From assembly GCF_000027125.1 (NCBI RefSeq), contig NC_017626.1: 64,000 bases of DNA; one strand, given 5' to 3'. Each line of letters starts with the position of its first letter. The stretch's first letter is position 1. This document shows positions 3,551-53,583 of the stretch, piece after piece. Below the pieces are notes generated by a model that worked only from the letters and a program-made list of their open reading frames with translations, did not search any database and was not told where the DNA came from. Both the position numbers and the translations under genes were made by a program. This DNA is from Escherichia coli 042 (lineage in GTDB: Bacteria > Pseudomonadota > Gammaproteobacteria > Enterobacterales > Enterobacteriaceae).

Positions 3551-4369
3551 TTAAATCAGGTGGCTATAAATGAACCGGGCAATGCTGTCGGTGGTGTTAT
3601 CACCAATCACAATGTTGGCGCGCGCTTTTACCGCGTCATCGGCGTTGCCCATCGCCACGCCTGTACCAGCGGCTTCCAGCATACTGATATCATTAAAGTT
3701 ATCGCCGAATGCCACGACGTTTTCCATCGACCAACCTTGTGCCTCAACCCATTTCGTCAAACGTTTACCTTTGCTGTTGCCGCCGCGTGCAATATCAACC
3801 TGATCGTGCCAGGACCATTCACACTCCAGTCCCAGTTCATGTTCGACATGCTTACCAAAATGCTGCAATTGCGGCAGGTCATCGTGCGTCAGGGCGAACT
3901 TCCATACGGCGTTAACTTGTTGCGCCGTTTCAGCCAGAGAAGCGACTTGTGTGAAAGTCGGACGCTGTTCCGGCGGCAGGGTTTGCGCCCAGTTAGACGT
4001 GCGAATGACATGCCCGGTCGGGTGCTCATAGACCATTGCATCATCGACATACATCAGACCGTGAATGTGGTGTTCATTCAGCATCTCAATGAGTTGCAGG
4101 GCTTTATTAACGGGCATTGGGTCCGCTTCCAGCACGGTTTTTGCATGATAATCATACAAATAGGTGCCATTACAGCAAATAGCAGGTGTATCCAGCGCCA
4201 GCGCCTGATAAAAAGGATGAATAGCGACGTGATGGCGACCTGTGACGATGATTAATTGATAGCCTGCTTCGCGAGCGCGGGCCAGGGCTTCTATCGATGA
4301 TGGAAGCAAGGTCTTTTTCGGGGTCAATAAGGTGCCGTCTAAGTCGAGAGCAATCACGCGTGTGGTCAT
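3551..4369 (-). CDS. ybhA: HAD-family (Cof-like) sugar/pyridoxal phosphate phosphatase YbhA
   Basis: Track ORF trimmed to internal Met (MTTRVIALDLDGTLL, HAD motif I); 272 aa. Confidence 0.9.
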   Translation of the reverse strand: MTTRVIALDLDGTLLTPKKTLLPSSIEALARAREAGYQLIIVTGRHHVAIHPFYQALALDTPAICCNGTYLYDYHAKTVLEADPMPVNKALQLIEMLNEHHIHGLMYVDDAMVYEHPTGHVIRTSNWAQTLPPEQRPTFTQVASLAETAQQVNAVWKFALTHDDLPQLQHFGKHVEHELGLECEWSWHDQVDIARGGNSKGKRLTKWVEAQGWSMENVVAFGDNFNDISMLEAAGTGVAMGNADDAVKARANIVIGDNTTDSIARFIYSHLI

Positions 4370-13188: not shown

Positions 13189-14259
13189 TTATTTGATTTC
13201 AATTTTGTCCCACTCCCTGCCTCTGTCATCACGATACTGTGATGCCATGGTGTCCGACTTATGCCCGAGAAGATGTTGAGCAAACTTATCGCTTATCTGC
13301 TTCTCATAGAGTCTTGCAGACAAACTGCGCAACTCGTGAAATGTAGGCGGATCCCCTTCGAAGGAAAGACCTGATGCTTTTCGTGCGCGCATAAAATACC
13401 TTGATACTGTGCCGGATGAAAGCGGTTCACGACGAGTAGATGCAATTATGGTTTCTCCGCCAAGAATCTCTTTGCATTTATCAAGTGTTTCCTTCATTGA
13501 TATCCCGAGAGCATCAACATGCAATGTTGTAGGGATGGCAATTTTTACACCTGTTTTGCTTTGCTCGACATAAAGATATCCATCTACGATATCAGACCAC
13601 TTCATTTCGCATAAATCACCAACTCGCTGCCCGGTAACAACAGCCAGTTCCATTGCAAGTCTGAGCCAACATGGTGATGATTCTGCTGCTTGATAAATTT
13701 TCAGGTATTCGTCAGCCGTAAGTCTTGATCTCCTTACCTCTGATTTTGCTGCGCGAGTGGCAGCGACCGGGTTTGTTGTTATATGGCCTTCAGCTATTGC
13801 CTCTCGGAATGCATCGCTTAGTGTTGATCTGATTAACTTGGCTGACGCCGCCTTGCCCTCGTCTATGTATCCATTGAGCATTGCCGCAATTTCTTTTGTG
13901 GTGATGTTTTCAAGTGGAGCATCAGGCAGACCCCTCCTTATTGCTTTAATTTTGCTCATGTAATTTATGAGTGTCTTCTGCTTGATTCCTCTGTTGGCGA
14001 GGATTTTTTCGTAGCGATCAAGCCATGAATGTAACGTAACAGAATTATCACTGTTGATTCTCGCTGTCAGAGGCTTGTGTTTGTGTCCTGAAAATAACTC
14101 AATGTTGGCCTGTATAGCTTCAGTGATTGCTATCCTCCTGTCTCGGCCTAATCCAAACTCTTTACCCGTCCTTGGGTCCCTGTAGCAGTAATATCCATTG
14201 TTTCTTATATAAAGGTTAGGGGGTAAATCCCGGCGCTCATGACTTCGCCTTCTTCCCAT
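13189..14259 (-). CDS. int: Lambda integrase (tyrosine recombinase)
   Basis: 356 aa, MGRRRSHERRDLPPNLYIRNNGYYCYRDPRTGKEF..., essentially identical to recalled lambda Int. Confidence 0.97.
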   Translation of the reverse strand: MGRRRSHERRDLPPNLYIRNNGYYCYRDPRTGKEFGLGRDRRIAITEAIQANIELFSGHKHKPLTARINSDNSVTLHSWLDRYEKILANRGIKQKTLINYMSKIKAIRRGLPDAPLENITTKEIAAMLNGYIDEGKAASAKLIRSTLSDAFREAIAEGHITTNPVAATRAAKSEVRRSRLTADEYLKIYQAAESSPCWLRLAMELAVVTGQRVGDLCEMKWSDIVDGYLYVEQSKTGVKIAIPTTLHVDALGISMKETLDKCKEILGGETIIASTRREPLSSGTVSRYFMRARKASGLSFEGDPPTFHELRSLSARLYEKQISDKFAQHLLGHKSDTMASQYRDDRGREWDKIEIK

Positions 14260-14455
14260 TTCTGATCCTCTTCAAAAGGCTACCTGTTACTGGTCGATTT
14301 AAGTCAACCTTTACCGCTGATTCGTGGAACAGATACTCTCTTCCATCCTTAACCGGAGGAGGGAATATCCTGCATTCGCGCACCCATCGACGAACTGTTT
14401 CAAGGCTTCTTGGGCGCCGCTGGCGTGCGTTCCACTCCTGAAGTGTCAAGTACAT
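14237..14455 (-). CDS. xis: Lambda excisionase
   Basis: 72 aa, MYLTLQEWNARQRRPRSLETVRRWVRECRIFPPPVKDGREYLFHESAVKVDLNRP, matches recalled lambda Xis. Confidence 0.95.
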   Translation of the reverse strand: MYLTLQEWNARQRRPRSLETVRRWVRECRIFPPPVKDGREYLFHESAVKVDLNRPVTGSLLKRIRNGKKAKS

Positions 14456-14560
14456 CGCAAAGTCTCCGCAATTACACGCAAGAAAAGCCGCATTGATGCG
14501 GCGATGGTAGGTCTGGATATCTTGAGAAATGAACTGGCCTCATCGAGTGTGAGGCTGTGG

Positions 14561-14905
14561 TTAGTCCTTGCGTAGCTCACTGATTCTTCTGTAAGTCTCT
14601 GGTGCTTTGTTTCCGTGTATCTTCATTTCAGACTTCAACAGAGCAACGAGGGAATCCCATTCGTTGAGGATGCCTTTGAATGCCGGAACGCGCTTTGCAA
14701 CCTTGTCGAATGAATCTCTGATTTCTGGGATCTGCTCAACAAGTGCAACGCATCGTCGGAAATCGGCTGCGTCATGTGGAGCACCGAAGTGATGACCATA
14801 GATATTCTTTTTCAGTCCACATGCGATTGAGGCAAGAGTTGCGCTACTGATGCCGACATCGCCAGTTGATTGCCATTTCAAAACCTTCATAGCCAAATCT
14901 GACAT
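14561..14905 (-). CDS. Hypothetical protein (~114 aa) in the integrase-proximal accessory slot
   Basis: Track ORF trimmed to MSDLAMKVLKWQ...; preceded by RBS GGAGAC. Confidence 0.5.
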   Translation of the reverse strand: MSDLAMKVLKWQSTGDVGISSATLASIACGLKKNIYGHHFGAPHDAADFRRCVALVEQIPEIRDSFDKVAKRVPAFKGILNEWDSLVALLKSEMKIHGNKAPETYRRISELRKD

Positions 14906-14916
14906 TTCTTGTCTCC

Positions 14917-14940
14917 AATAAAAAACCGCCATCAGGCGGC
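14917..14940 (-). terminator. Rho-independent terminator immediately upstream of the 14905 start
   Basis: Minus-strand hairpin GCCGCCTGATGGCGG followed by TTTTTATT. Confidence 0.5.
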
Positions 14941-15005
14941 TTGGTGTTCTTTCAGTTCTTCAATTCGAATATTGGTTACATTGTTTTCATATATGAATAA
15001 ATAAA

Positions 15006-15218
15006 TTAGCTTTTTTCGTTGCCTTCGCTTTCTTTATTAATTTTAACAAACTCGTTTTTACCACGCTCTCCAAATGCGTCTTTAGAGTCGTTGTATCCGC
15101 AATCGCAGCACACATAATCTCCAGACCATCCACGCATTGTTTTTTCTTTTGCAATATTTCCAGAACCGCATTTTGGACAAGACATATCACTACCTCCAAA
15201 GCATGAGTGAGATGACAA
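15006..15218 (-). CDS. Small zinc-ribbon protein
   Basis: CPKCG...CCDCG four-cysteine motif; probable start at internal MSCPKCG. Confidence 0.45.
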   Translation of the reverse strand: MSSHSCFGGSDMSCPKCGSGNIAKEKTMRGWSGDYVCCDCGYNDSKDAFGERGKNEFVKINKESEGNEKS

Positions 15219-15281
15219 CGTAACATTGATTGGAGATTAACAATAGATTGCTGATGTAAAAGATATGTATAAGCTTCGCTT

Positions 15282-15986
15282 TCAAAGTGGAGGCTCTGGT
15301 AGCGGCATCCAGTGTGACGGCTCACATACCCCCTCAACACCGTTCATGTAAAAGAATTGAAATAACCCTTTACCTTTGTGAAACCCTACCATCTGCTCTT
15401 TTGTGTCTGAACAATAAACCAAAACATCTTCTTCGTTTGGCATTCGCTCACTACAGCTTATCCAACTATCCGGAGTTCCCGGAGAGTTGCCATTTACATC
15501 GAAGTTTGGCTCTGCGTCCTGAACCAGGAGAATGTAACCATTCTTGGCTGTATCAAGTTCTAACGCCTCGGTGACGGTGCCGAAATAGCGATTACCTAAA
15601 TCAGCATCACAAGTGCTTACATCAATGGAAACTTCCATGCCTTCGATTAATTCTGGCAAGTTGTAAGTTTGGCTTACAGGTTGGCTACCCTGAAGCATGG
15701 CGGCGCGGTGACACCAGATAATCCAGCCAAGCGCCATATCCCATGCCATGTATTCTCTATCGCCATTTTTTGCCCTACGGCGATCTACAGATTCCCCGAA
15801 ACGCTTCTCCATAAATAATTCATAGGCTGCTCGTTCATCCGATACTGCTGCCAGTGATGCCAGTGCAATTTTTAATGCGGTAAGCATGTTGTTTTGATCT
15901 TCATCGAGTCCGAACGGTATTTCATCCCGTGCTGACTCAATGCTGGTAATCGTGTTCTGTAACCATTCTTTGGTAAGAGTATTCAT
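15282..15986 (-). CDS. Phage protein with C-terminal DUF551-like domain
   Basis: C-terminal WISCSERMPNEED...HWMPLPEPP pattern recalled for DUF551 phage proteins. Confidence 0.5.
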   Translation of the reverse strand: MNTLTKEWLQNTITSIESARDEIPFGLDEDQNNMLTALKIALASLAAVSDERAAYELFMEKRFGESVDRRRAKNGDREYMAWDMALGWIIWCHRAAMLQGSQPVSQTYNLPELIEGMEVSIDVSTCDADLGNRYFGTVTEALELDTAKNGYILLVQDAEPNFDVNGNSPGTPDSWISCSERMPNEEDVLVYCSDTKEQMVGFHKGKGLFQFFYMNGVEGVCEPSHWMPLPEPPL

Positions 15987-15988
15987 AA

Positions 15989-16180
15989 CTATTTCACTTT
16001 AATCTCAATATTTCGCAGCTTTAGCTCTACTGGCAGGTCTGACTTTCCTGTTAATGCTAATGCGAGATTTTCAGGAGTAATGAGAGCAGTTATTGTTTTT
16101 CCCCTCGCCAGACGAATAATCATTCGTATCTCGCAATCGTCACATGCTCCCGGTCGAACAATTGAGATTTGTCCGTTCAT
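15989..16180 (-). CDS. Hypothetical small phage protein
   Basis: 63-aa ORF packed between neighbours in the same operon. Confidence 0.35.
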   Translation of the reverse strand: MNGQISIVRPGACDDCEIRMIIRLARGKTITALITPENLALALTGKSDLPVELKLRNIEIKVK

Positions 16181-16181
16181 C

Positions 16182-16808
16182 TCACTTCCCCTTCACACCA
16201 ATGTTGGCGGCGGCGCGCTCGGCTTCACTTTGTTCCCAAAACCACTTGTGAAGCGCCATAAGCTTTTCGTCAATCGGTGCATATTTGCGATTAAAGTAGG
16301 CCTGAGCATCTTTCTCAGATTCGTCCGGTAATTCGCCTGGGCCAAACAGTGTGTTATAAATCCATGCCAGTCCGCTTTTAGCGTCGCCAGTCGATTGCCA
16401 TTCGATAATGGCAGCCTGCATGACCAGAATGTTTTTCCCGATTAACAGGTCCAGTTCTTTGTACCGGTTGCGGATGTATGCATTCTCGCTTTGTAATTTT
16501 GCGTTGCGCTTCTCTGCGGCTTCCAGATCAACTCTCAGCTTCCCTACCGTTAGCGCAATATCCTCGTTCTCCTGGTCGCGGCGTTTGATGTATTGCTGGT
16601 TTCTTTCCCGTTCATCCAGTAGTGCCAGCACGGTTTCTGGTCCGGTCAGAAATTTGAAGGCGTTGAGCGCATCAATATCCACACCGTAATCCTTAAGTTC
16701 CTGTTCACTTAACAAATCATCATCAACTGGCAACATTAACAGGCGTTCCATTGCCGGAATTGCACGTTCTGCCGCCAGTCGCAGAGCCTGATAGTTAATC
16801 TCGCTCAC
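16182..16808 (-). CDS. Ead/Ea22-like early protein
   Basis: 208 aa, coiled-coil rich, position after xis; resembles Ea22-family proteins of lambdoid phages (from memory). Confidence 0.45.
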
Positions 16809-16988
16809 TGGTTGCCTCCTTTGCGCAACATCGCATTCAGATATTTGTTTTGATTCACTGATGGAAAAGAATTTCTCTTAAGCAATTCCTCTCTCGATGG
16901 CATTGGCTTTACGCGTTGGCGAATAATCATTTCTGCCGGAAGAATGCCGGGATTGTATGCAAGTCCTCTCATGGTAAATTCCTCTTTG

Positions 16989-17303
16989 TTAATTTATTCG
17001 TATGCCTGCTCTTTCTTCATCGAGTTTTTTTAGCTTGTATCGCATAGCTCTTACTGAATAAATTGAGCGGCAGGTTGCAATTGCTATTTCTTCTGCGGAG
17101 AACTTACCGAAAAGTGATACTTCGGCTCTTGTCCATCGTCTTCCACGAAGTCGGCTAACAATGTCAGCGCCAATCCTTGTTGCTTTCGCCATTACTGCTT
17201 TTTCAGTCCTTTCCAGTTTTTCAGCGATAACTTCAACTGGCATTGTCGCCGCCACTTCGCGCAAGAAATCGACTTCCCATTTCTCCCATGGAGTCTTTTT
17301 CAT
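16989..17303 (-). CDS. Hypothetical phage protein
   Basis: 104-aa ORF in early-left operon. Confidence 0.4.
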
Positions 17304-17314
17304 AGGCGATACCG

Positions 17315-17803
17315 TTATTTGATAAGAAGTGAAGGTTTCCCAACTTTGAGTTGAGCGCCGGGGATATTTATTCCTGCTTTTAGTTGGTGTTTGATTGCTA
17401 GTTTGTCGGCTTTAATTGTCGTTTCAAACTCAACGTATTCTTGAGGAAGGGCGCTTGAGTCGATGATTTCTACAGTTTCTGACGGTTTGCGGATTGTTAC
17501 CTGGTGAATACCTGCTCGAATCTTTTTCTTGCCAACCATTTCAAGCGATGACGCTATATATGATTTGATGCTGTCAATCTTATTTTGAATTACTGCGGCT
17601 CGCTCATTTAGTGACTTTGCCTCTTCCTTGAGGCGTTCAGCATAACCAGATTCATTTTTAATAATGGCGAGAAGTTGCTCTATTTTATCGGTAAATTCTC
17701 CTTCCATGCCTTCTATTGTGTCAGCAATCATCTCTGGCTCTAAATCTGAATCCATCAATTTTGCGTATTCATTGGCTATTTCATATAGTTTGCTCACTGG
17801 CAA
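17315..17803 (-). CDS. Gp157-like protein (RecT-associated family)
   Basis: 162 aa immediately downstream of recT; acidic coiled-coil protein of the type often adjacent to RecT/Erf. Confidence 0.4.
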   Translation of the reverse strand: MPVSKLYEIANEYAKLMDSDLEPEMIADTIEGMEGEFTDKIEQLLAIIKNESGYAERLKEEAKSLNERAAVIQNKIDSIKSYIASSLEMVGKKKIRAGIHQVTIRKPSETVEIIDSSALPQEYVEFETTIKADKLAIKHQLKAGINIPGAQLKVGKPSLLIK

Positions 17804-18692
17804 CCTCCAGTTTCGCTTTGCATTCTATGTAAATGGCTTGTACGTTCTGCTGCAATTTCATTCCAGATGTCAGGCGATATGCTTCTGCAAAATATCGCTT
17901 CAAATCATCCATGTTTTCTGCCTGAGCCATTTCATCGCAAAGAAGTTGTACTTTATCCATTATTTCCTGCTGGCGTTTCCGTTCATCTTCGCGGATATCT
18001 TCCTCTGATTTGTGCGGCATAACTGGTTCAGTCCACACACCTTCTTCTTCGTTTAGTACGTGAATAGCACTATCAAGACGTGATGCCTTAGGCCAATACT
18101 TGCTTGCACGCTTTACGACCGTCTTTCGCGCCATCTCATTCCAGTGATTTACCCATGGTCCTTTATCGCTGAATGCTGCCTTGCTTGTTTTCCTTACAGC
18201 CTCAATTTCAGCCAGACTCATCTCTTCCGTTAGATAATCACCTGCTGGCGTCTTAACTGTGCAGTAAACGCCAACGATATCACCACGATCACCGAAGGCG
18301 TTGTATTTATGGGTTGGTGCTTTATCAAGCCCGTTTGACTCATAGGTATCGTTAGCATGAACAAGTTTTGCCTGACCCCATGAGATAACACCAGACTCCA
18401 TTGCAATATGGAGCAATCCCATATAACTGATATCAAGGCAAACCATGCCGTCGCGCGGAACTAGATAAGCAAGTTTGCTGGCCGGGTTTAAGGTGATGCC
18501 GATCGCCGCAACATTGATGATGGCGTTCTGTGCGCTGGTTGGATTTGCCAGTGCCGTTTTAGCCAGGTAATCATTTTTCTGGAAATACTGAATTGCAAAC
18601 TGGCTTTCCTTAGCCCATGTCACCGTCTGTTCAGTCAATGCTCCGCAGAATAACTGCTCCTGCTGTTTAACGAATTCAACGATATTGCTCAT
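17781..18692 (-). CDS. recT: RecT-family single-strand annealing recombinase
   Basis: 303 aa with the recalled RecT pattern GPWVNHWNEMARKTVVKRASKYWP. Confidence 0.8.
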   Translation of the reverse strand: MSNIVEFVKQQEQLFCGALTEQTVTWAKESQFAIQYFQKNDYLAKTALANPTSAQNAIINVAAIGITLNPASKLAYLVPRDGMVCLDISYMGLLHIAMESGVISWGQAKLVHANDTYESNGLDKAPTHKYNAFGDRGDIVGVYCTVKTPAGDYLTEEMSLAEIEAVRKTSKAAFSDKGPWVNHWNEMARKTVVKRASKYWPKASRLDSAIHVLNEEEGVWTEPVMPHKSEEDIREDERKRQQEIMDKVQLLCDEMAQAENMDDLKRYFAEAYRLTSGMKLQQNVQAIYIECKAKLEVASEQTI

Positions 18693-19000
18693 GCAGCTTC
18701 TCCATAAATATGTCTGCGTTTGAATATTGCGAAGGCATATTCAGCCTTAACTCTTTCGGTTATTGCATCCCAGAACCATTCAGCGGCTTTTTCCTGATAG
18801 TTACAGTCATCATCTTCCAGCCAGTCGATAGCGTCCTTAGTGTGTTCATCTGGTTTATATGAGCGAAGCATTTCGCTTATTGGGTCGCAACGTTTGCAGA
18901 GGCGATCAACTTCACTGTTGATTCGTTCGTAATCTTCATCAGTAAAACTTGCGATTATTTGCGATATTTCACGCTTATCATTCAGAGTCAGAATCATCAT
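18689..19000 (-). CDS. Hypothetical early protein
   Basis: 103-aa ORF overlapping recT start codon. Confidence 0.4.
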   Translation of the reverse strand: MMILTLNDKREISQIIASFTDEDYERINSEVDRLCKRCDPISEMLRSYKPDEHTKDAIDWLEDDDCNYQEKAAEWFWDAITERVKAEYAFAIFKRRHIYGEAA

Positions 19001-19547
19001 CTTTCTCCTGTTCTTTGTGCTGATTGAGCATTTCTTTCATCTGACGAATGAATTCTTCGTCTGACCAGTTATCTGTAAAACTCATTTCCTGCGATACCAC
19101 GGAAGGTTGATCGCTGATTTCATCGCTTTATTTGCTTCAAGCCACATTTTTGAATCACCAATAAATCTGGCTATTACTGCTTTGTTCTGTGCAGCACGAA
19201 GCATCTGGTGATTGATGGCTATTTCATTGCGCATAACGCCTCCAGTTGTTTCTTTGCTGCTCTGATTAATTGTTTAACTCGGCGTGATAATTCAGATTCG
19301 TGCGGGTAGAAAGCGGACATGACGCCGCTACCCGCGAGCTGAAAGTGCATCATGGGTAACTCCTTATATTTGATTGCATAACGAAAACGCCTCGAATGAA
19401 GCGTTATTGGTATGCATATAAAAAGGCCCTCACACTGGAGGGCAAAGAAGATTTCCAATAATCAGAACAAGTCGGCTCCTGTTTAGTTACGAGCGACATT
19501 GCTCCGTGTATTCACTCGTTGGAATGAATACACAGTGCTTATTCGTA

Positions 19548-20018
19548 CTAATAAAATACCCAATTTTCTGTTTCTTGGTTGTGTCCAAAGTTATATTCAA
19601 TATCTGGTGTTGATGTATCAATATTCTTCATCCCATCAACAAGAGTTGATACAACAGCCAAATCTTGTTCTATTCTCATTAAATGGTATTTCTTCCGGCG
19701 CAATAAACTTTCAATAGCAAGTTTCTTCGTTGGGAATGCAAAAGATCTTTCTGCATTTTTTGCTACTTTCTTAATTGCATATCTATTTCTCCTTTGTTTC
19801 CATTCCTGTAACCACTGATTTGGTGCTGGTTTAAAATTAACAATCCAATGCGCAGGAACCAACCATGCATAATGCTCTGTCTGATGAAAAGCTATATATT
19901 GAAGTGCGAATATTTTTATCCCATCTTCTTCAACTGTCGCCTGGAATCTCCAGAAAACAGGCATTCCATCATGTTCAGTTTCTGATTCAGGAAAAGGTAC
20001 GCTCCATGATTTTGTCAT
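19548..20018 (-). CDS. Hypothetical protein, low-GC accessory gene upstream of N
   Basis: 156-aa ORF in AT-rich DNA; no recognised family. Confidence 0.5.
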   Translation of the reverse strand: MTKSWSVPFPESETEHDGMPVFWRFQATVEEDGIKIFALQYIAFHQTEHYAWLVPAHWIVNFKPAPNQWLQEWKQRRNRYAIKKVAKNAERSFAFPTKKLAIESLLRRKKYHLMRIEQDLAVVSTLVDGMKNIDTSTPDIEYNFGHNQETENWVFY

Positions 20019-20026
20019 ATCTCACC

Positions 20027-20353
20027 TCAAATAAGTGGTTTGCTGCCTAATTTCATTTTCTGTCGACCAACACAAGTCACACCAATTTCACTGCGTGGCT
20101 TGCTGTACCATGTGCGCTGATTCTTGCGCTCAATACGTTGCAGGTTGCTTTCAATCTGTTCGTGGTATTCAGCCAGCACCGTAAGGTCTATCGGATTCAG
20201 TGCGCTTTCTACTCGTGATTTCGGTTTGCGATTCAGCGAGAGAATAGGGCGGTTAACTGGCTTTGCGCTTACCCCAACCAACAGGGGATTTGCTGCTTTC
20301 CATTGAGCCTGTTTCTCTGCGCGACGTTCGCGGCGGCGTGTTTGTGCATCCAT
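20027..20353 (-). CDS. N: Antitermination protein N
   Basis: Track ORF trimmed to MDAQTRRRERRAEKQAQWKAANPLLVGVSAKPVNRPILSL..., matches recalled lambda N; 108 aa. Confidence 0.92.
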   Translation of the reverse strand: MDAQTRRRERRAEKQAQWKAANPLLVGVSAKPVNRPILSLNRKPKSRVESALNPIDLTVLAEYHEQIESNLQRIERKNQRTWYSKPRSEIGVTCVGRQKMKLGSKPLI

Positions 20354-20463
20354 CTGGATTCTCCTGTCAGTTAGCTTTGAGTAACGCGCCGTGATGCTTA
20401 TCTCCACGGTTGCTGTCTTGCAGCTGCATTTCGCGCTACTCAAAGCTTTCTGCTTTGAATGCT

Positions 20464-20494
20464 GCCCTTCTTCAGGGCTTAATTTTTAAGAGCG
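20464..20494 (-). promoter_or_regulatory. nutL (boxA + boxB)
   Basis: Minus-strand CGCTCTTA (boxA) and GCCCTGAAGAAGGGC (boxB hairpin) between pL and N. Confidence 0.85.
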
Positions 20495-20538
20495 TCACCT
20501 TCATGGTGGTCAGTGCGTCCTGCTGATGGCTTAAAATT

Positions 20539-20606
20539 ACAAGGAAGATTGTATGTTGTAAACAAGAAATATTGTAAAAAAGAGCGTGAAAAACAAATTC
20601 CATTGT
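20539..20606 (-). promoter_or_regulatory. OL operators / pL region, phage 434 type
   Basis: Three 14-bp sites ACAAGGAAGATTGT (20539-20552), ACAAGAAATATTGT (20562-20575), ACAAATTCCATTGT (20593-20606). Confidence 0.75.
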
Positions 20607-20656
20607 TTTTAAACGGAAAATAGTTTGTTTTTTGGTTGTCGAAATCGAGGTGAGGA

Positions 20657-22009
<1,353 letters not shown>

Positions 22010-22017
22010 GACATTCC

Positions 22018-22049
22018 CGCTCTTACACATCCCAGCCCTGAAAAAGGGC
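22018..22049 (+). promoter_or_regulatory. nutR (boxA + boxB)
   Basis: CGCTCTTA then GCCCTGAAAAAGGGC hairpin downstream of cro. Confidence 0.85.
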
Positions 22050-22128
22050 ATCAAATTAAACCACACCTATGGTGTATGCATTTATTTGCATACATTCAAT
22101 CAATTGTTATCTAAGGAAATACTTACAT

Positions 22129-22407
22129 ATGCAACTTACAAGTACTCGCAAGAAAGCGAATGCAATTACAAGCAACATCCTAAATCGAATTGCTGTACGT
22201 GGTCAGCGAAAGGTGGCCGACGCGTTAGGGATTAATGAATCGCAAATTTCACGATGGAAAGACAGCTTCATCCCAAAAATGGGAATGCTTCTGGCTGTTC
22301 TTGAATGGGGTGTTGAAGACGAGGAGTTGGCGGAACTGGCTAAGAAAGTAGCCAGAATGCTGACAAAAGAAAAAGCCCCGAAGAACGGCGAATTCTTCGA
22401 GGCCTGA
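22129..22407 (+). CDS. cII: cII transcriptional activator
   Basis: Trimmed to internal Met; ...QISRWK...PKMGMLLAVLEWGVEDEELAELAKKVARMLT parallels recalled lambda cII. Confidence 0.85.
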   Translation: MQLTSTRKKANAITSNILNRIAVRGQRKVADALGINESQISRWKDSFIPKMGMLLAVLEWGVEDEELAELAKKVARMLTKEKAPKNGEFFEA

Positions 22408-22589
22408 TGTAGAAAGACTGGATCAATCCACAGGAGTAATTATGACAAAACGTCGTAAGAAATACCAGGAAAAAGAAGAGATTCGACACCCTGATTCACC
22501 TGAGGGATTAGTGGTAGCCGCAGCAAATAACAGGGCGTTCGCAGAGCGCCTTGTTGGTGTTTACAGACTAGCCAAAGCAGGAGTGAAAC

Positions 22590-32459: not shown

Positions 32460-34189
32460 GCCGGAAATCTTACCCCAACGTAAATGCTGCCAATCAGTAT
32501 GCCCGGGATGTCGTGCGCGGAAAGATTGTGGCCTGCCAGTTTGTGATTCAGGCCTGCCAGCGCCATCTTGATGACCTGATGGAGGAAAAAAGTAAGTCGT
32601 TTCGTTACCGCTTCGACAAGGACCTGGCTGAACGGGCCGCGAAATTTATTCAGCTGTTGCCGCACACCAAGGGTGAGTGGGCATTCAAACGGATGCCCAT
32701 CACGCTGGAGCCGTGGCAGCTATTTGTGATCTGCTGTGCGTTTGGCTGGGTCAATAAAGGCACCCGGTTGCGCCGCTTCCGGGAGGTGTATACCGAAATC
32801 CCCCGTAAGAACGGCAAATCAGCAATCTCTGCCGGTGTCGCCCTGTATTGTTTTGCCTGTGATAACGAGTTCGGCGCGGAAGTGTATTCCGGTGCCACGA
32901 CAGAGAAACAGGCATGGGAAGTCTTTCGTCCGGCAAGACTGATGTGTAAACGCACACCCATGCTGACGGAAGCGTTCGGGATTGAGGTTAACGCCTCAAA
33001 CATGAACCGTCCGGAGGATGGTGCGCGTTTTGAACCGCTGATCGGTAACCCCGGTGATGGTTCATCACCCCACTGTGCGGTGGTGGATGAATATCACGAG
33101 CACGCCACAGATGCGCTTTACACCACGATGCTTACCGGGATGGGGGCGCGACGTCAGCCACTGATGTGGGCTATCACTACCGCCGGGTACAACATTGAGG
33201 GGCCGTGCTACGACAAACGGCGGGAAGTCATCGAGATGCTCAACGGCTCGGTGCCTAACGATGAACTGTTCGGGATCATCTATACCGTTGATGAAGGTGA
33301 CGACTGGACCGACCCGCAGGTGCTGGAAAAAGCCAATCCAAATATTGGCGTGTCGGTTTATCGCGAATTTTTGTTAAGTCAGCAGCAGCGTGCGAAAAAT
33401 AACGCCCGTCTGGCAAACGTCTTTAAAACAAAACACCTCAATATCTGGGTGTCGGCGCGTTCGGCGTATTTCAACCTGGTGAGCTGGCAGAGCTGCGAGG
33501 ATAAATCACTGTCCCTTGAGCAGTTCGAGGGGCAGCCGTGCATTCTGGCCTTTGACCTGGCGCGTAAACTGGATATGAACAGCATGGCGCGACTTTATAC
33601 CCGCGAGATTGACGGTAAAACGCATTACTACAGTGTAGCCCCGCGTTTCTGGGTACCGTATGACACGGTGTACAGCGTCGAGAAAAATGAAGATCGACGG
33701 ACAGCCGAACGCTTTCAGAAATGGGTGGAAATGGGCGTTCTGACCGTTACCGATGGTGCGGAGGTGGATTATCGCTACATCCTCGAGGAGGCCAAAGCGG
33801 CGAACAAAATCAGCCCGGTCAGTGAGTCACCCATCGACCCCTTCGGGGCGACCGGGTTGTCACATGACCTTGCTGATGAAGACCTGAACCCCATCACTAT
33901 CATTCAGAACTACACCAACATGTCCGACCCGATGAAAGAGCTGGAAGCGGCAATTGAATCGGGGCGCTTTCATCATGACGGCAATCCCATCATGACCTGG
34001 TGTATCGGCAACGTGGTCGGCAAAACCATTCCGGGTAACGATGATGTGGTGAAACCCGTCAAAGAGCAGGCGGAAAACAAAATCGATGGTGCAGTTGCGC
34101 TGATTATGGCGGTTGGCAGAGCCATGCTGTACGAGAAAGAAGACACGCTGTCTGACCACATTGAGTCCTACGGGATCCGCTCGCTTTAA
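32456..34189 (+). CDS. Terminase large subunit
   Basis: 577 aa; ATPase and nuclease motifs; position before portal. Confidence 0.9.
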
Positions 34190-34383: not shown

Positions 34384-35624
34384 TGTTCTTTTCGGGATTA
34401 TTTCAACGAAAAAGTGACGCACCGGTGACCACGCCAGCAGAGCTGGCGGATGCCATCGGGTTGTCCTACGACACCTATACCGGAAAGCAGATCAGCAGCC
34501 AGCGGGCCATGCGACTGACGGCGGTTTTTTCCTGTGTCAGGGTGCTGGCGGAGTCGGTCGGGATGTTGCCCTGCAACCTGTATCACCTGAACGGCAGCCT
34601 GAAGCAGAGAGCCACCGACGAACGTCTGCATAAGCTGATCTCCACGCATCCCAATGGCTATATGACGCCGCAGGAGTTCTGGGAGCTGGTGGTCACCTGT
34701 CTGTGCCTGCGGGGAAACTTTTACGCCTACAAAGTGAAAGCATTTGGCGAAGTGGCTGAACTGCTGCCCGTCGATCCCGGCTGTGTGGTACCGAAGCTTA
34801 ACAGTAGCTGGGAGCCGGTCTATCAGGTCACATTCCCGGATGGCTCCACGGATGTACTGAGCCAGGAGGATATCTGGCATGTGCGCACGCTGACGCTGGA
34901 CGGTCTGGTGGGACTGAATCCCGTCGCCTATGCCCGTGAGGCAATATCGCTGGCAGCTGCGACCGAAGAGCACGGGGCCAGACTGTTCAGCAATGGCGCG
35001 GTGACGTCGGGTGTGTTGCGTACAGAACAGACGCTGTCGGATCAGGCTTATGAGCGCCTGAAGAAAGATTTTGAGGAGCGTCACACCGGGCTTGGTAATG
35101 CTCACCGCCCGATGATCCTTGAGATGGGGCTGGACTGGAAGTCGATGGCGCTGAACGCCGAGGACAGCCAGTTCCTGGAAACCCGCAAGTTTCAGCTTGA
35201 AGAAATCTGTCGTCTGTTCCGGGTGCCGTTGCACATGGTGCAGAACACCGATCGCGCCACCTTCAACAATATCGAAGAGCTGGGGCTGGGATTTATCAAC
35301 TATTCACTGGTGCCGTATCTGACCCGCATCGAACAGCGGATCAACACCGGACTGGTACGAAAAAGTAAGCAGGGCGTTTATTACGCCAAATTTAACGCCG
35401 GGGCGTTACTGCGCGGGGATATGAAGTCCCGTTTTGAAGCCTACGCCACCGGGATCAACTGGGGAATTTACTCTCCCAATGACTGCCGCGATCTGGAAGA
35501 TATGAATCCGCGTCCCGGTGGTGATGTCTATCTCACACCGATGAACATGACCACGAAACCCTCCGATGGCAGTAAAGCCGGTAAGCAGAAGGATAACGCC
35601 AATGCAGACGAAACAACGTCTTGA
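34383..35624 (+). CDS. Portal protein (HK97 family)
   Basis: 413 aa in terminase-portal-protease-capsid order. Confidence 0.85.
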   Translation: MFFSGLFQRKSDAPVTTPAELADAIGLSYDTYTGKQISSQRAMRLTAVFSCVRVLAESVGMLPCNLYHLNGSLKQRATDERLHKLISTHPNGYMTPQEFWELVVTCLCLRGNFYAYKVKAFGEVAELLPVDPGCVVPKLNSSWEPVYQVTFPDGSTDVLSQEDIWHVRTLTLDGLVGLNPVAYAREAISLAAATEEHGARLFSNGAVTSGVLRTEQTLSDQAYERLKKDFEERHTGLGNAHRPMILEMGLDWKSMALNAEDSQFLETRKFQLEEICRLFRVPLHMVQNTDRATFNNIEELGLGFINYSLVPYLTRIEQRINTGLVRKSKQGVYYAKFNAGALLRGDMKSRFEAYATGINWGIYSPNDCRDLEDMNPRPGGDVYLTPMNMTTKPSDGSKAGKQKDNANADETTS

Positions 35625-36266: not shown

Positions 36267-37472
36267 ATGGCGGTAGATATTAAAGATGTCGAACAGGTCG
36301 CGCAGGAGCTGCAGCAGAAGTTTGACGACTTCAAAGCAAAGAACGACAAGCGCGTGGAGGCGATTGAGCAGGAAAAAGGCAAACTTGCCGGGCAGGTGGA
36401 AACCCTGAACGGAAAACTCAGCGAGCTGGAAAATCTCAAAAGCGACCTTGAAAAAGAGCTGCTTGAGCTGAAACGTCCGGCAGGTGGTGCGCAAAATAAA
36501 CTGGCCACCGAGCATAAAGAGGCGTTTGTGGGTTTTCTGCGTAAAGGCCGTGAAGACGGTCTGCGCGATCTGGAGCGTAAGGCATTGCAGGTGGGCACCG
36601 ATGAAGACGGTGGCTACGCCGTGCCGGAAGAACTGGATCGCAACATTCTCAACCTGCTGAAAGATGAAGTGGTGATGCGTCAGGAAGCCACGGTGATCAC
36701 CGTTGGCGGTTCCGACTACAAAAAACTGGTGAATCTGGGCGGTACGGCTTCCGGATGGGTGGGGGAAACGGATACGCGATCCCAGACTGCCACCTCCAGA
36801 CTGGAGCTGATTGAACCTCTCATGGGGGAAATCTACGGTAACCCGCAGGCCACCCAGAAAATGCTGGACGATGCCTTTTTCAACGTGGAGGCCTGGATCA
36901 ACAGCGAGCTGGCAACCGAATTTGCCGAACAGGAAGAAATTGCCTTTACCTCCGGCGATGGCACCAAGAAGCCAAAAGGGTTCCTGGCGTATGAATCCAC
37001 CGATGAAACCGATAAGGTCCGGGCGTTCGGCAAACTTCAGCATATTGTATCCGGCGAAGCGACGGCGGTGACCGCAGACGCCATTATCAAACTGATTTAC
37101 ACGCTGCGTAAGGCACACCGCACTGGCGCGAAATTCATGATGAACAACAACAGCCTGTTTGCCATCCGTCTGCTGAAAGACAGCGAGGGTAACTATCTGT
37201 GGCGTCCGGGGCTGGAACTGGGGCAGCCGTCCTCTCTGGCGGGTTACGGTATCGCTGAAAACGAACAGATGCCGGATATCGCCGCTGATGCGAAAGCCAT
37301 TGCATTTGGTAACTTCAAACGGGGTTACACCATCGTTGACCGTATCGGCACCCGCATTCTGCGTGACCCGTACACCAATAAACCGTTTGTCGGTTTTTAT
37401 ACCACCAAGCGCACCGGCGGGATGCTGGTCGATTCGCAGGCCATCAAACTGCTGAAGATTGCAGCGGCGTAA
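36267..37472 (+). CDS. Major capsid protein (HK97 fold) with N-terminal delta domain
   Basis: 401 aa; N-terminal coiled coil then capsid domain. Confidence 0.88.
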   Translation: MAVDIKDVEQVAQELQQKFDDFKAKNDKRVEAIEQEKGKLAGQVETLNGKLSELENLKSDLEKELLELKRPAGGAQNKLATEHKEAFVGFLRKGREDGLRDLERKALQVGTDEDGGYAVPEELDRNILNLLKDEVVMRQEATVITVGGSDYKKLVNLGGTASGWVGETDTRSQTATSRLELIEPLMGEIYGNPQATQKMLDDAFFNVEAWINSELATEFAEQEEIAFTSGDGTKKPKGFLAYESTDETDKVRAFGKLQHIVSGEATAVTADAIIKLIYTLRKAHRTGAKFMMNNNSLFAIRLLKDSEGNYLWRPGLELGQPSSLAGYGIAENEQMPDIAADAKAIAFGNFKRGYTIVDRIGTRILRDPYTNKPFVGFYTTKRTGGMLVDSQAIKLLKIAAA

Positions 37473-39501: not shown

Positions 39502-39672
39502 ATGTTTGTGAAACCTGTTAAAGGGCGGTCAGTGCCTGACCCTGCCCGCGGTGACCTTTTGCCCACCGAAGGGCGAAATGTTGACGAGAACAACTACTGG
39601 CTGCGCCGTGAAGCAGCGGGTGATATCCGGCGCGTGAATAAAAAGGTGAACACCGATGACGACAAGCTTTAA
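39502..39672 (+). CDS. Small hypothetical protein overlapping sheath start
   Basis: 56 codons from ATG 39502 to TAA 39670-39672; below track cutoff. Confidence 0.3.
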   Translation: MFVKPVKGRSVPDPARGDLLPTEGRNVDENNYWLRREAAGDIRRVNKKVNTDDDKL

Positions 39673-41152
39673 CACCATTCCGTCGAATACGCTGGTTCCG
39701 CTGTTTTATGCGGAAATGGATAACCAGGCGGCGAATACTGCACAGGACAGCGGGGCATCGTTGCTGATTGGTCACGCCAATAACGGTGCAGAGATTGTTG
39801 CCAACAGTCTGGTGCTGATGCCGTCGGCAGACTATGCACGCCAGATTTGTGGTGCGGGAAGTCAGCTGGCGCGTATGGTTGAGGCTTATCGCCAGACCGA
39901 CCCGTTTGGTGAGCTGTATGTGATTGCCGTTCCTGAATCCACGGGCGCGGCGGCAACAGTTACGCTGACGGTGACCGGGGCGGCAACCGAAACCGGCACG
40001 GTGAATGTTTATGTGGGACGTACCCGCGTGCAGGCACCGGTGACCAACGGCGATAACGTCGCGACCATTGCCAGCAGTATCCAGGATGCCATCAATGCCG
40101 TTCCGACTCTGCCGTTTACAGCTTCATCTTCGGCTGGTGTGGTCACGCTGACCGCGCGTCATAAGGGGCTTTGCGGGAATGAAATTCCTGTCAGCCTCAA
40201 TTACTACGGCTTCGGTGGGGGCGAAGTGCTGCCAGCGGGCGTACAGATTGCCGTGGCGACGGGGACCGCCGGAACGGGCGCTCCGGTTCTCACCGGCGCG
40301 GTGGCTGCAATGGCGGATGAGCCGTTTGATTATATCGGCCTGCCGTTCAACGACACGGCCTCCGTTAACACGCTGGTGACCGAGATGAACGATACCAGCG
40401 GTCGCTGGAGCTATGCGCGTCAGCTGTATGGTCATGTGTATACGGCAAAGACCGGTACGCTGTCAGAACTGGTGACCGCAGGTGACCAGTTTAACCAGCA
40501 GCACATTACCCTGGCGGGGTACGAAAAAGAGACCCAGACGCCTGCCGACGAACTGGCGGCAAGCCGTACCGCCCGCGCAGCGGTGTTTATTCGCAACGAT
40601 CCGGCACGTCCCACGCAGACCGGTGAGCTGGTGGGTATGCTGCCTGCGCCGAAGGGGAAACGGTTCACGATGACCGAACAACAGACCCTGCTGTCTCATG
40701 GCGTGGCAACGGCGTATGTCGAAAGCGGGGTACTGCGCATTCAGCGTGATGTCACCACGTACAGGAAAAACGCTTACGGGGTTGCGGATAACAGCTACCT
40801 AGACAGCGAGACGCTGCATACCAGCGCGTATGTACTGCGCAAACTGAAATCCGTCATTACCAGTAAGTACGGGCGTCACAAGCTTGCCAGCGACGGTACC
40901 CGCTTTGGTCCCGGTCAGGCGATTGTCACACCGGCGGTGATCAAAGGGGAACTGCTGGCAACCTACCGTCAGCTTGAGCGTGCGGGGATCGTGGAAAACT
41001 ACGAACTGTTTAAGCAGTACCTGGTTGTGGAGCGTGATGCCAGCGATCCGAACCGCCTGAACACGCTGTTCCCGCCTGACTATGTTAACCAGTTGCGTGT
41101 CTTTGCCGTGGTTAACCAGTTCCGTCTTCAGTATTCAGAGGAGTCTGCATAA
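39656..41152 (+). CDS. Contractile tail sheath protein (Mu L-like)
   Basis: 498 aa followed by tube, chaperone, tape measure. Confidence 0.85.
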   Translation: MTTSFNTIPSNTLVPLFYAEMDNQAANTAQDSGASLLIGHANNGAEIVANSLVLMPSADYARQICGAGSQLARMVEAYRQTDPFGELYVIAVPESTGAAATVTLTVTGAATETGTVNVYVGRTRVQAPVTNGDNVATIASSIQDAINAVPTLPFTASSSAGVVTLTARHKGLCGNEIPVSLNYYGFGGGEVLPAGVQIAVATGTAGTGAPVLTGAVAAMADEPFDYIGLPFNDTASVNTLVTEMNDTSGRWSYARQLYGHVYTAKTGTLSELVTAGDQFNQQHITLAGYEKETQTPADELAASRTARAAVFIRNDPARPTQTGELVGMLPAPKGKRFTMTEQQTLLSHGVATAYVESGVLRIQRDVTTYRKNAYGVADNSYLDSETLHTSAYVLRKLKSVITSKYGRHKLASDGTRFGPGQAIVTPAVIKGELLATYRQLERAGIVENYELFKQYLVVERDASDPNRLNTLFPPDYVNQLRVFAVVNQFRLQYSEESA

Positions 41153-50131: not shown

Positions 50132-50536
50132 ATGAATGATGTTTATGCAGTTGTTGATAATAACGTTGTTATTAATGTCATTATCTGGGACGGAATTTCT
50201 GAATGGAAACCAGAGGCTGGTAATTTAGTTCCGTTAAACGGCGATGCTGGCATCGGTTGGTCATATTCAGACGGAGTATTTACCGCGCCACCTCCCCCAG
50301 AACGCTCTCACAACGCGTTAGTTGCGGAGGCTGAGCTGCAGAAATCAGCACTACTGACCGTAGCAAATAACGCAATAGCACCGCTGCAGGATGCCGTTGA
50401 TTTGGAAATGGCGACAGACGATGAACAGACGTTACTGCTGGCGTGGAAAAAATACAGGGTACTGCTGAACCGTGTTGATACCTCAGCGGCACCCGAAATA
50501 GAGTGGCCTACGCAACCGGGGGAGCGGGCCAGTTGA
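50132..50536 (+). CDS. Tail fiber assembly chaperone (Tfa)
   Basis: 134 aa with Tfa C-terminal motif [28 protein letters not shown]. Confidence 0.8.
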
Positions 50537-50657
50537 TATCAGGCGCAGGGGCAGCATCAACTGCTGTCACTGCGTCGATGTAGTCGAGTACCGCATTCAG
50601 CCGCCTTTTTTCATCATCAGTCAGTTTGCGGCCTACACCTCTCCGTTGACATCTTTG
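50511..50657 (-). pseudogene. Relic of a second, inverted tail-fiber-assembly gene (C-terminal 49 codons, no start)
   Basis: Minus-strand open frame ...[39 protein letters not shown] mirrors the Tfa C-terminal motif; overlaps tfa 3' end convergently. Confidence 0.45.
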
Positions 50658-50834
50658 TTATATGGTACAACTGCGCAGAGGCCTGTCTCTCCAACTGTGC
50701 CAGTTGAATACTACGATACAACGCTCGGCCTTCCTATTTGGTGGAACATAACCACATCCACATGGAAAAGAGCTGATGGTGCAGATGTATAATTCTGGTG
50801 CCGCGCATGCGGCACCAATAAAAAACATATTAAA

Positions 50835-52310
50835 CTAAAGTGAATCTATTCCATTTTTCCAAATAAGAACTTTTTTGTCTTGTATTTTATGAGTGCTATC
50901 AGGCTGCCCAAACTGTTTTATGGCCTTTTCCTCTTGCTCTACATCATCAGCAATTAAAAAATTAGCTCCTTTTTGGTACCATTCTTTTTTTGATAACCAA
51001 TTATATGGTGTGAATCTATCACCATACGACTCAAATGGAGCTACGTTGATATCACTAAATCCAGCAACAGATGATGCAAACCAAAATGATGCATAACCTC
51101 TTTGTAGTTTATTTTTTATTAAGAAATCTCTTAATTCTATTGTAATATCATTTTTATTAACAATGTTTTTTGTTGTTGCCATCGTTGGCAACGATAACGC
51201 AATAACGATTAATGATATTAGTAAATTTGTCTTCACTGGTAAGGAGAAAGAATTTCTAGCAATCACAATTGACATGAAAATAAATGTTGGGACTATGTAT
51301 CTAATTGAGAAAAGATTTGTTGGCCTGTCACTTGAAACATAGGCAATCAACATGACTAATGATGATACAATAAGAACCTGGTCAATAAAATCAATTTCTT
51401 TAAATTTAAGAATGTTTTTATAAGATAAAAATAAGAATACAAAAATGAAAAACACCTTTATCATGGTGAATAATGAGTTAAAGCTACCTATCTCCATTCC
51501 AAACGCGTACCCACCAAAAAATTTGAATACGCCCATGATAACAAGAGATATGTTGCTTGTTATTTGTTGAAACTCTACTATGTGAGGTTTGGTTATGCCT
51601 GGCAGGTTAAATCCACCAAGCTTAATGAATATAAATGATATGATCTCAGCAATAAATATAGATGATATAGTGAAAACCAACAATAACAAATCATTAGTAT
51701 TCAACGAATCTCTTTTCATTAGAGAAGCATACATTCTATATATGCAAACAAAAACTATAGGTATTATAAAGGCATATTTAGATATATCATCACTAAAAAC
51801 AAGCAACGATAACATAAATACATATGGAAAAAGTAATTTTAAATCATTTTTCTTTCTGTATCTATCTATTATTAGTATGATCGCCAGCATGTAAATGTAC
51901 GCACCAATATGTATACATGCTATAAGCATTATACTTGATGAGAAAACCGTTGGAATTCCAAATACAGAAAGAACAGGCCATAACGATGCCCTACTTTTAG
52001 TATGAGAGATATATAGCGATAGTGTTACTAATATAGACATGAAAACTCCAGGCACAATATAGTACAGATTTTCATTAAATCCTATTATTTTTATCGCTAT
52101 AGCATATGGTATTATTTCTGTGAAATAGAATGATACAGTTGATAAATCCCACCCACTGAGAAAAATATTTCCTTCAGTAATATCCCTTGCCTCTCTGAAT
52201 GAAGACATGACATCTGAGTTTGGAATTATGTTTTTAGCAATCATTGAGTAAATTATTGATAATACAATAAATGTTGCCAGCCAATATAAAAGCTCAAGCT
52301 TCTTGCTCAT
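50835..52310 (-). CDS. Serotype-specific O-antigen glucosyltransferase (GtrC-type)
   Basis: 491-aa polytopic membrane protein, strongly AT-rich, downstream of gtrA-gtrB in same operon. Confidence 0.75.
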
Positions 52311-53224
52311 TTTTTACCCTTAAGTACATACTTTGGACGCTGCTTAACTTCAATGTAAATTCTACCAATATACTCACCGAGCACTCCAATCCCAATTAAC
52401 TGGATGCCGCCAAGAAATAATATTGATACAAGAATTGAAGGGTATCCAGGTACATTATTACCAAAAATTAATTTATCAATTATCATCCATGAACCGTATG
52501 TAAATGATATACATGCAATAAATAACCCAATATAGGTCCACATGCGAAGCGGGAATGTTGAGAAGCTAGTGATCCCTTCCAGCGCCAAGTTCCATAGCTT
52601 CCATCCATTGAACTTTGTGCTTCCTGCAACGCGTTCTGCTCGCGCATATTCTACGACATCGGTTCGACCACCAACCCAGCTCAGCACACCCTTCATAAAC
52701 AGGTTTCGTTCTGGCATGAGCTTAATATTTTCTACTACTTCGCGAGACATGAGCCGGAAGTCGCCAACATTCTCTTCTATCTGAGGGTTGCTGATTTTGT
52801 TATGAAGTTTATAGAACCACTCAGCAGATTTACGCTTCAGCCTGCTGTCAGTGGAGCGGTCAGAGCGTTTAGCCAGAACCATATCTGCACCGGCCTGCCA
52901 TTTCTCTATCAAGTGAGGAATAACTTCGATAGGGTCTTGCAGATCAACGTCAATCGGGATAATTGCCTCCCCGGTAGCATGGTCCAGACCTGCGAACAGG
53001 GCGGGTTCTTTGCCGAAGTTACGTGTGAACGACAGCGAAACCACAAGCGGGTCGGCAACAGCGAGCTCGTTGATAATTGATTCTGTAGCGTCTTTGCTGC
53101 CATCGTTTATGAAGACTATCTCGACTTCATGCTGCTGAAGCCCTTCAAATTCGCGCACAGTTTTATAAAAAATAGGTATCGTGGCCTCTTCGTTAAAGAC
53201 CGGAACGACTAAAGAAATTTTCAT
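52307..53224 (-). CDS. gtrB: Bactoprenol glucosyltransferase GtrB
   Basis: 305 aa; GT2 N-terminal domain ([13 protein letters not shown]...DGSKD) plus C-terminal TM helices. Confidence 0.9.
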
Positions 53225-53583
53225 TTCGCATCCCTAAAGACAATGAACTTTGAATAGACGAAACCGCACACCAGGCTGATGGCGGAGAAGGTGACAAGAG
53301 TTATCATCGGGGGAAGTGCGCATCTATCAGCAGCCCATCCAACAGTAGCACTGAGTGTTCCCATGAACCCGACATATAACATGTAGCGCATCGTTGTAGT
53401 TGATGCTTTGAATGTGAATTTTGCATTCGCGAAGAAGCTAAAACTCACAGCCACAACGAAACCTGCGAAGTTTGCCAGAGCCTGATTGGTATGCGCGGCA
53501 TAGATACATACACCAAAAACCACCCAGTGTATAAGTGTGTTCAGCACACCAATCGAGGTGTACCTTGCAAATATATTTAACAT
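53221..53583 (-). CDS. gtrA: GtrA flippase-like small membrane protein
   Basis: 120 aa, four TM segments, first gene of gtr operon. Confidence 0.88.

Follow-up and report, generated by a model that had tools for sequence, protein, structure and literature searches.

HK97 gp45 and its relatives: a catalogued hypothetical gene that appears to travel as an accessory cassette of lambdoid early-left operons

Background

The interval between the antiterminator gene N and cIII in the early-left (pL) operons of lambdoid phages is a variable one. Phage lambda fills it with ral, orf28 and sieB, non-essential pL accessory genes that stand between the 3' part of N on one side and a segment bearing a hairpin and a terminator on the other. 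Lambda transcripts that are made independently of N stop before ral, and the tL2 terminator cluster lies in the interval between ral and ea10; a literature search on the lambda tL2/ral terminators found no supporting paper. P22-type gp17, labelled 'superinfection exclusion protein' by PGAP, is another cassette of the N-cIII interval. A further occupant, catalogued as HK97 gp45 or 933W L0079, is already known and widespread: it has been 'hypothetical' since phages H-19B, 933W and HK97 were deposited, yet it is found in about one in nine complete Escherichia coli genomes and in most of the sequenced Stx1/Stx2 phages that share this region. No paper on the gene was found in the literature, whichever of its names or accession numbers was used, and its homologues among 5.8 billion clustered proteins are all named 'hypothetical' or 'prophage protein' (AFDB labels two as 'transposase', which looks like noise in the annotation).

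Here we describe a copy of this gene, an open reading frame (ORF) of 156 codons, in a stretch of E. coli 042 DNA of 64,000 nucleotides (the window). The protein is apparently made along with N and ahead of all other delayed-early functions. Such early synthesis, together with good conservation and the lack of a recognisable fold, makes a role in host takeover or counter-defence reasonable to consider, and its function could bear on the induction and host range of Stx phages. The gene is also one of many uncharacterised lambdoid accessory genes, and nothing found here marks it as exceptional among them.

The prophage and its early-left operon

The window contains a lambdoid prophage that extends from an integrase gene (13189-14259) to the gtrABC O-antigen conversion genes (50835-53583) and includes a contractile tail sheath. 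Its early-left operon lies on the minus strand and reads, in order, pL/nutL, N, the 156-aa ORF, a hairpin, a terminator, cIII, kil, a 103-aa ORF, RecT and a Gam-like protein (Table 1). N is nearly that of lambda (98.6% nucleotide identity over 20097-20379 by blastn), as is the pL-nutL segment, where 20441-20528 corresponds to lambda 35496-35583 with a 98.9% match and the boxB hairpin maps onto the lambda feature 'Nutl' at 35518-35534. N and cIII thus flank the 156-aa ORF within the pL operon, in the gene order of HK97, 933W and phi24B. An earlier note on this DNA had put it upstream of N; on the transcribed strand it lies downstream.

Table 1. Features of the early-left region of the prophage, in window coordinates
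Feature	Coordinates	Strand	Basis and remarks
kil	19082-19234	-	after cIII; PHROG 2055 (Kil), E=1.2e-35
cIII	19219..19353	-	PHROG 550, E=2.6e-13; next gene of the pL operon
Intrinsic terminator, GCCCTC-CAGTGT-GAGGGC then CTTTTTATAT	19417..19443	-	terminator scan (19443-19426, T-run)
Hairpin of the earlier note, GTGTATTCA-N10-TGAATACAC	19506..19533	-	lambda backbone, outside the cassette
Mosaic cassette in place of lambda ral-orf28-sieB	19539..20096 (approximate)	.	blastn and lambda annotation
156-aa ORF (HK97 gp45 / 933W L0079 / phi24B vb_24B_11c family, PHROG 1636)	19548..20018	-	ORF listing; ATG start
Ribosome-binding site GAGGTGAG	20021..20028	-	overlaps N stop codon (20029-20027); ORF ATG 20018-20016; sequence reading
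N, lambda-type antiterminator gene	20027..20353	-	108 aa from MDAQTRRRERR; PHROG 271 'anti-termination protein N-like', E=1e-25
nutL boxB hairpin	20464..20478	-	GCCCTGAAGAAGGGC on minus strand; inverted repeat detected

At the other end of the prophage a gtrA/gtrB pair and a 491-aa serotype-specific gene occupy 50835-53583 on the minus strand, and the windows of lowest GC in the whole 64 kb fall at about 50500-52000, within this gtr region. The genes for the contractile tail sheath (39656-41152) and for a major head protein with a match to PHROG 10 (36267-37472) complete what is presumably a resemblance to SfV-like O-antigen-converting phages. Nearer to pL, an ORF of 134 aa at 20657-21061 on the minus strand has a signal-peptide-like N-terminus and an ATG that overlaps the cI stop codon (ATGA); it matches PHROG 2651, which has no functional annotation, and takes the position of lambda rexAB, between cI and pL. 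Because of this site it is probably expressed along with the repressor in lysogens, and as an exclusion or conversion factor made by the lysogen it is a stronger candidate than the 156-aa ORF.

A conserved gene of low GC content

The 156-aa protein certainly belongs to the HK97 gp45 / PHROG 1636 family, matching the latter over residues 1-156 of 156 with E=1e-111, though the PHROG itself has no functional annotation. Proteins 98-99% identical are HK97 gp45, 933W L0079 (ST933Wp19), phi24B vb_24B_11c, an unannotated ORF of H-19B and a copy in phage Dewey, with tblastn giving 98.7% to HK97 gp45 and 99.4% to 933W. Where the earlier note had recognised no family, there is therefore one of long standing. 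The gene occurs in 83 phage records by tblastn, mostly of Stx1/Stx2 converting phages. Of 5426 complete E. coli genomes, 597 have it by megablast, with up to four copies per genome; farther full-length homologues of 55-84% identity are found in Salmonella, Cronobacter, Pectobacterium, Brenneria and Rosenbergiella. It is a true coding gene on which purifying selection acts, dN/dS being about 0-0.25 among seven distinct E. coli alleles. Its Shine-Dalgarno sequence, GAGGTGA, places the GAGG core 6 nt 5' of the ATG, and 8 nt separate the N stop codon from the start of the ORF. In a decayed prophage of E. coli E2865 (1501-2098) the gene is intact beside an N that is reduced to an annotated fragment of 69 bp, a single case that could hint at retention independent of N.

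The gene is as AT-rich as had been claimed for it. Its GC content is 35.7% (46, 35 and 26% at the three codon positions, GC3 being 25.6%), against means for windows of equal size of 50.2% over the whole window and 44.8% (sd 3.8) over the early-left region at 13189-24000; values as low occur in the lowest 0.7% of early-left windows and in 2.4% of all windows. Across the family, GC lies 3-6 points under that of the flanks in 11 of the 14 loci checked, and the E. coli and Salmonella copies lie 9-10 points under theirs. The low GC is therefore in part intrinsic to the family and in part the sign of an origin in DNA of lower GC. The earlier note had named beforehand two observations that would tell against its account of a foreign accessory gene, homology to a housekeeping phage protein and a GC content like that of the neighbours, and neither was found.

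A mosaic cassette and its junctions

The limits of the acquired DNA were mapped by blastn of the window against the loci of lambda, HK97, 933W, H-19B, Dewey and E. coli E06. Homology to lambda stops at 19538 and restarts at 20097, within the 3' part of N, and because it breaks off at both edges the DNA between is best described as a cassette that replaces ral-orf28-sieB of lambda. The drop in GC coincides with the two breakpoints at about 19539 and 20096, and the cassette is linked to two different N alleles in different phages. The suggestion of a horizontally exchanged accessory gene where lambda has ral and sieB is borne out on both counts, for these sharp breakpoints lie between flanks that in lambda enclose ral-orf28-sieB itself.

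Beyond the left-hand breakpoint follows a segment of 123 bp (19416-19538) that is 97.6% identical to lambda 33923-34045, located 3' of ral and 5' of ea10, and that holds both the hairpin and the terminator. Because it lies within this segment, the hairpin is conserved backbone that was not acquired with the gene, to which it had previously been tied. Both edges of the segment have been used more than once. At the 19415/19420 junction a P22 gp17-like cassette is inserted in H-19B and E. coli E06, and ea10 follows in lambda and 933W; at the 19539/19545 junction two small ORFs are inserted in phage Dewey. By sequence comparison these are reused recombination junctions, and the segment with its hairpin and terminator behaves as a portable linker.

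On the side of N, the phages HK97 and 933W have a spacer of 58 bp between N and gp45 that is non-coding and finds its homologue in the 3'-terminal coding sequence of the window's N (the homology pairs window 20019-20096 with HK97 3720-3781). This suggests that the spacer is the fossil of an earlier linkage between a lambda-type N and gp45, from which the cassette was later recombined behind another N allele. Judged from such alignments, the 156-aa gene is a mobile accessory cassette of lambdoid early-left operons, swappable between phages.

Signals around the gene and its expression

The perfect 9-bp hairpin is present exactly as the earlier note had given it. Read as minus-strand RNA it forms a stem of 12 bp (with one G-U pair) closed by a 4-nt loop, 15 nt past the stop codon of the ORF, and an identical hairpin is found in lambda 3' of ral. 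The window holds 13 distinct perfect hairpins of at least 9 bp where shuffled sequence leads one to expect 2.7, so this one is probably not due to chance. It was rejected as a Rho-independent terminator: no U-tract follows the stem, after which comes GGAGCAAUGUCG, and the terminator scan made no call there. The scan did call the intrinsic terminator of Table 1, which is the first such site 3' of pL in this phage; the same site is annotated in HK97 as 'putative terminator' of gene 45 and is also present in lambda, between ral and ea10. About 20 nt past it and before cIII, a second terminator-like hairpin (19386-19405, minus strand; AACGCTTCATTCGAGGCGTT then TTCGTT) gives two stops in tandem that precede the delayed-early genes. 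Neither the hairpin nor the terminator matched a known RNA family when 18500-22500 was scanned against Rfam with E up to 1.

Upstream of these signals, the terminator scan found no terminator-like site on the minus strand between nutL and the ORF stop codon, and a scan of that strand from pL to the ORF, including N, found no sigma-70-like hexamer pair even at 8 of 12 matches (a scan against the consensus only). Because neither terminator nor promoter intervenes between N and the ORF, the gene should be co-transcribed with N from pL as far as the first terminator, and it would then be an immediate-early product that is silent in the repressed prophage. Rho-dependent termination between the two genes might nevertheless occur.

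The protein and its predicted fold

With an overall pI of 8.0, the protein divides into an acidic N-terminal part of 60 residues, a strongly basic centre (residues 61-130, pI 10.6) and an acidic tail. It has no hydrophobic or membrane segment, the maximum Kyte-Doolittle mean over 19 residues being 0.56, and is predicted to be soluble. Given an alignment of 79 sequences, AlphaFold returned a model with pLDDT 95.3 and pTM 0.82 (with 22 close homologues only, pLDDT was 57 and the model unusable). It consists of three long strands (19-30, 33-46 and 50-55), two short helices, a beta-hairpin at about 83-95, a helix of 33 residues (98-130) and an ordered C-terminal tail. The checks that the earlier note had proposed, by remote homology and by structure prediction, were in this sense productive, yielding relatives and a confident model, but no characterised family or solved fold was matched by either. 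No fold among solved structures matches the model, a sequence search of the PDB with two profiles gave nothing below E=0.19, Pfam (searched with the query and the 79 aligned relatives) and NCBIfam gave no meaningful match, and neither a helix-turn-helix nor another known regulatory fold was found. A PD-(D/E)XK nuclease built on E46 and K87 was considered and rejected, since the E. coli clade does not keep the acid (it has QTE, not ET) and no fold matched.

What is conserved is charge. Basic residues at positions 24, 75, 83, 84, 87, 92 and 109 are kept in 66 distant relatives of about 20% identity. Over the 79 aligned sequences the median net charge is +10 for residues 76-118 (range +4 to +14) and the median charge is -4 beyond residue 119, and nearly all members end in an aromatic-x-aromatic-acid motif.

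Distant relatives and the company they keep

An HMMER profile search of 1.84 billion representative proteins gave 87 matches, among them about 65 distant relatives of 130-160 aa; two multi-repeat matches (P0059 and P0080) were discarded as low-complexity or repeat artefacts. The distant relatives fall in PHROGs 13631, 25384 and 28215, none of them functionally annotated, and their hosts or phages include Cellulophaga (Bacteroidota), Vibrio, Achromobacter and Erwinia. Members occur in N4-like and Ackermannviridae-type phages, which are virulent.

At every locus examined the gene is co-oriented with its neighbours within an early operon of recombination, replication and DNA-modification genes, among which RecT, YqaJ, RecE, SSB, RdgC, DNA methylase, PolA and helicase are represented. 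A metagenomic phage has RecT, YqaJ and CsrA near its copy, in a Vibrio phage the gene adjoins RecE, and in Salmonella phage NX263 a copy of 63% identity is the first gene of the operon. Another locus surrounds it with PolA, dCTP deaminase, an exonuclease, a PD-(D/E)XK protein and an SNF2 helicase. Among marine and other prophages one has RdgC with DNA methylases and another has YqaJ, RNase T, SSB and CsrA. In Pectobacterium and Brenneria, RecT or YqaJ lies upstream and xis-int directly downstream; in a metagenomic prophage a DNA methylase lies upstream and AlpA-int directly downstream. No partner gene recurs across the loci examined, so the family protein would appear to act alone, and only in the E. 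coli lambdoids does the gene lie next to N.

In all three distant prophages with long flanks (Marinobacterium, Pseudomaricurvus and a metagenome), the operon of the family member also contains a gene for a C5 DNA methyltransferase, no more than about 2 kb away; this proximity may be a coincidence, such operons being rich in methylases.

What the protein may do

The explanation that we prefer, tentatively and with rather less than even confidence, is a soluble, stand-alone accessory protein of the early lytic phase that binds nucleic acid. Infected or induced cells would make it alongside N within the first minutes, ahead of any need for antitermination by N. The conserved basic face at its centre, formed by the beta-hairpin and long helix (residues about 75-118), would bind a polyanion, most likely DNA or RNA, and its acidic tail with the aromatic end would serve as a regulatory or partner-docking element. 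The role would then belong to host takeover, the protection of phage nucleic acid or recombination, and not to lysogen immunity. Three points favour such a binder: expression early in the lytic cycle, a protein that is soluble and stands alone, and a basic face that is conserved among phages of different bacterial phyla. The retention of that face in very distant hosts argues for nucleic acid as the ligand and against a host protein specific to one lineage, and the operon company of recombination, replication, DNA-modification and host-takeover genes fits a role of this kind. An acidic protein or a membrane could just as well be the target of the basic patch. Furthermore, the argument for immediate-early expression is a positional one and is not universal: in Pectobacterium, Brenneria and the metagenomic prophage the gene sits at the xis-int end.

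A bolder reading, which we consider doubtful, is that the gp45/L0079 family founds a structurally unprecedented class of early proteins, common to temperate phages (those with Shiga toxin among them) and virulent phages of distant phyla, that neutralises a widespread host barrier or reprogrammes nucleic-acid metabolism by an undescribed mechanism and is expressed in lambdoids alongside N as an immediate-early product.

Counter-defence by protein-protein inhibition in the manner of Ral, whereby a host restriction or abortive-infection component would be neutralised or redirected early in infection, seems unlikely. The gene does replace ral-orf28-sieB between the same flanks, and its slot neighbours elsewhere are counter-defence or takeover genes (the gp17-like gene in H-19B and E06; gam, kil and cIII), but the protein resembles neither Ral nor gp17 nor any anti-restriction family in Pfam. 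The pI of the protein and that of its basic centre, together with the lack of a Pfam match, speak against a DNA mimic of the Ocr/ArdA type. Co-transcription with N and a foreign composition would suit a counter-defence gene, as would the fact that it is non-essential, being missing from lambda and, of the lambdoid records with the same flanks, from about three in four (335 vs 83 records). Against these stand the basic residues kept across very distant hosts, which would be unusual in inhibitors of lineage-specific defence, and the very low diversity within E. coli, where copies are always at least 95% identical at the nucleotide level (602 records) and not diversified as in an arms race.

Quite unlikely, in our judgement, is a regulator internal to the phage or a helper of recombination or replication, acting in the lysis-lysogeny decision, in excision or with a Red/RecT-type system and comparable with the small genes between exo and xis of lambda. 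Members of the family are always in early-left operons beside recombination genes, yet they have no conserved partner gene and no fixed position there, and lambda and most lambdoids with the same recombination modules lack the gene. Direct contact with xis or AlpA-int in three prophages and with RecE in the Vibrio phage gives this possibility some substance, and the basic face is compatible with DNA binding, although not by way of a helix-turn-helix or other known regulatory fold.

Very unlikely is a superinfection-exclusion or abortive-infection factor of the SieB type, expressed by the prophage for the protection of the lysogen, and the exclusion factor that the earlier note had offered as one reading of the gene loses ground here. 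The slot is that of lambda sieB and the AT-rich composition is moron-like; the ORF, however, lies inside the repressed pL operon with no promoter-like site of its own, and its product has no membrane segment, no PADLOC match and no match to the annotated SieB ORF of lambda. The intact ORF of the E2865 prophage, with its fragmentary N, would accord with a function in the lysogen, but the relatives in virulent-type phages would not.

That the ORF is a chance or decaying one without function is effectively refuted, despite some frameshifted or truncated copies (E06 and partial proteins), by purifying selection, by homologues that extend over the full length even at 20% identity and share a confident fold, and by a strong ribosome-binding site.

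Comparison with known systems

Set beside lambda, the locus shares the slot and differs in its content. Ral has 66 aa, the protein in the window 156 aa, and there is no similarity between them by sequence or profile: hhalign gave a probability of 0.1% against lambda Ral and of 0.6% against the lambda ORF annotated as SieB, an annotation that is a GeneMark prediction on the plus strand and makes the test only as good as itself. Unlike lambda, with its stop before ral, the operon here shows no intrinsic terminator ahead of the ORF. The P22-type gp17 is likewise distinct (hhalign probability 1%), and in H-19B and E06 the gp17-like gene lies immediately 3' of the terminator segment of the ORF, so that the two co-occur and do not replace one another. 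The only match in PADLOC-DB v2, to Cas1_II with E=0.017 over 45 residues, was treated as noise. The anti-restriction function that had been proposed is neither supported nor contradicted: the protein has no homology to Ral, the SieB ORF, gp17, a Pfam or NCBIfam family or a PADLOC model.

Closer to the 156-aa protein are the PHROGs 13631, 25384 and 28215, from Achromobacter N4-like, Erwinia Ackermannviridae-type, Cellulophaga, Vibrio and Pseudomonas phages or prophages, which by profile and predicted fold belong to the same superfamily. They have a similar length (130-160 aa), the same basic centre and the same aromatic and acidic C-terminus, but they are only about 20% identical and lie elsewhere in early operons. 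Closest of all are HK97, 933W and phi24B, whose genes, all annotated 'hypothetical', agree with this one in their length of 156 aa and in their site, with N on one side and the terminator before cIII/ea10 on the other; the window differs in joining the gene to a lambda-type N across a gap of 8 nt, where HK97 and 933W have a different N allele and the 58-bp spacer.
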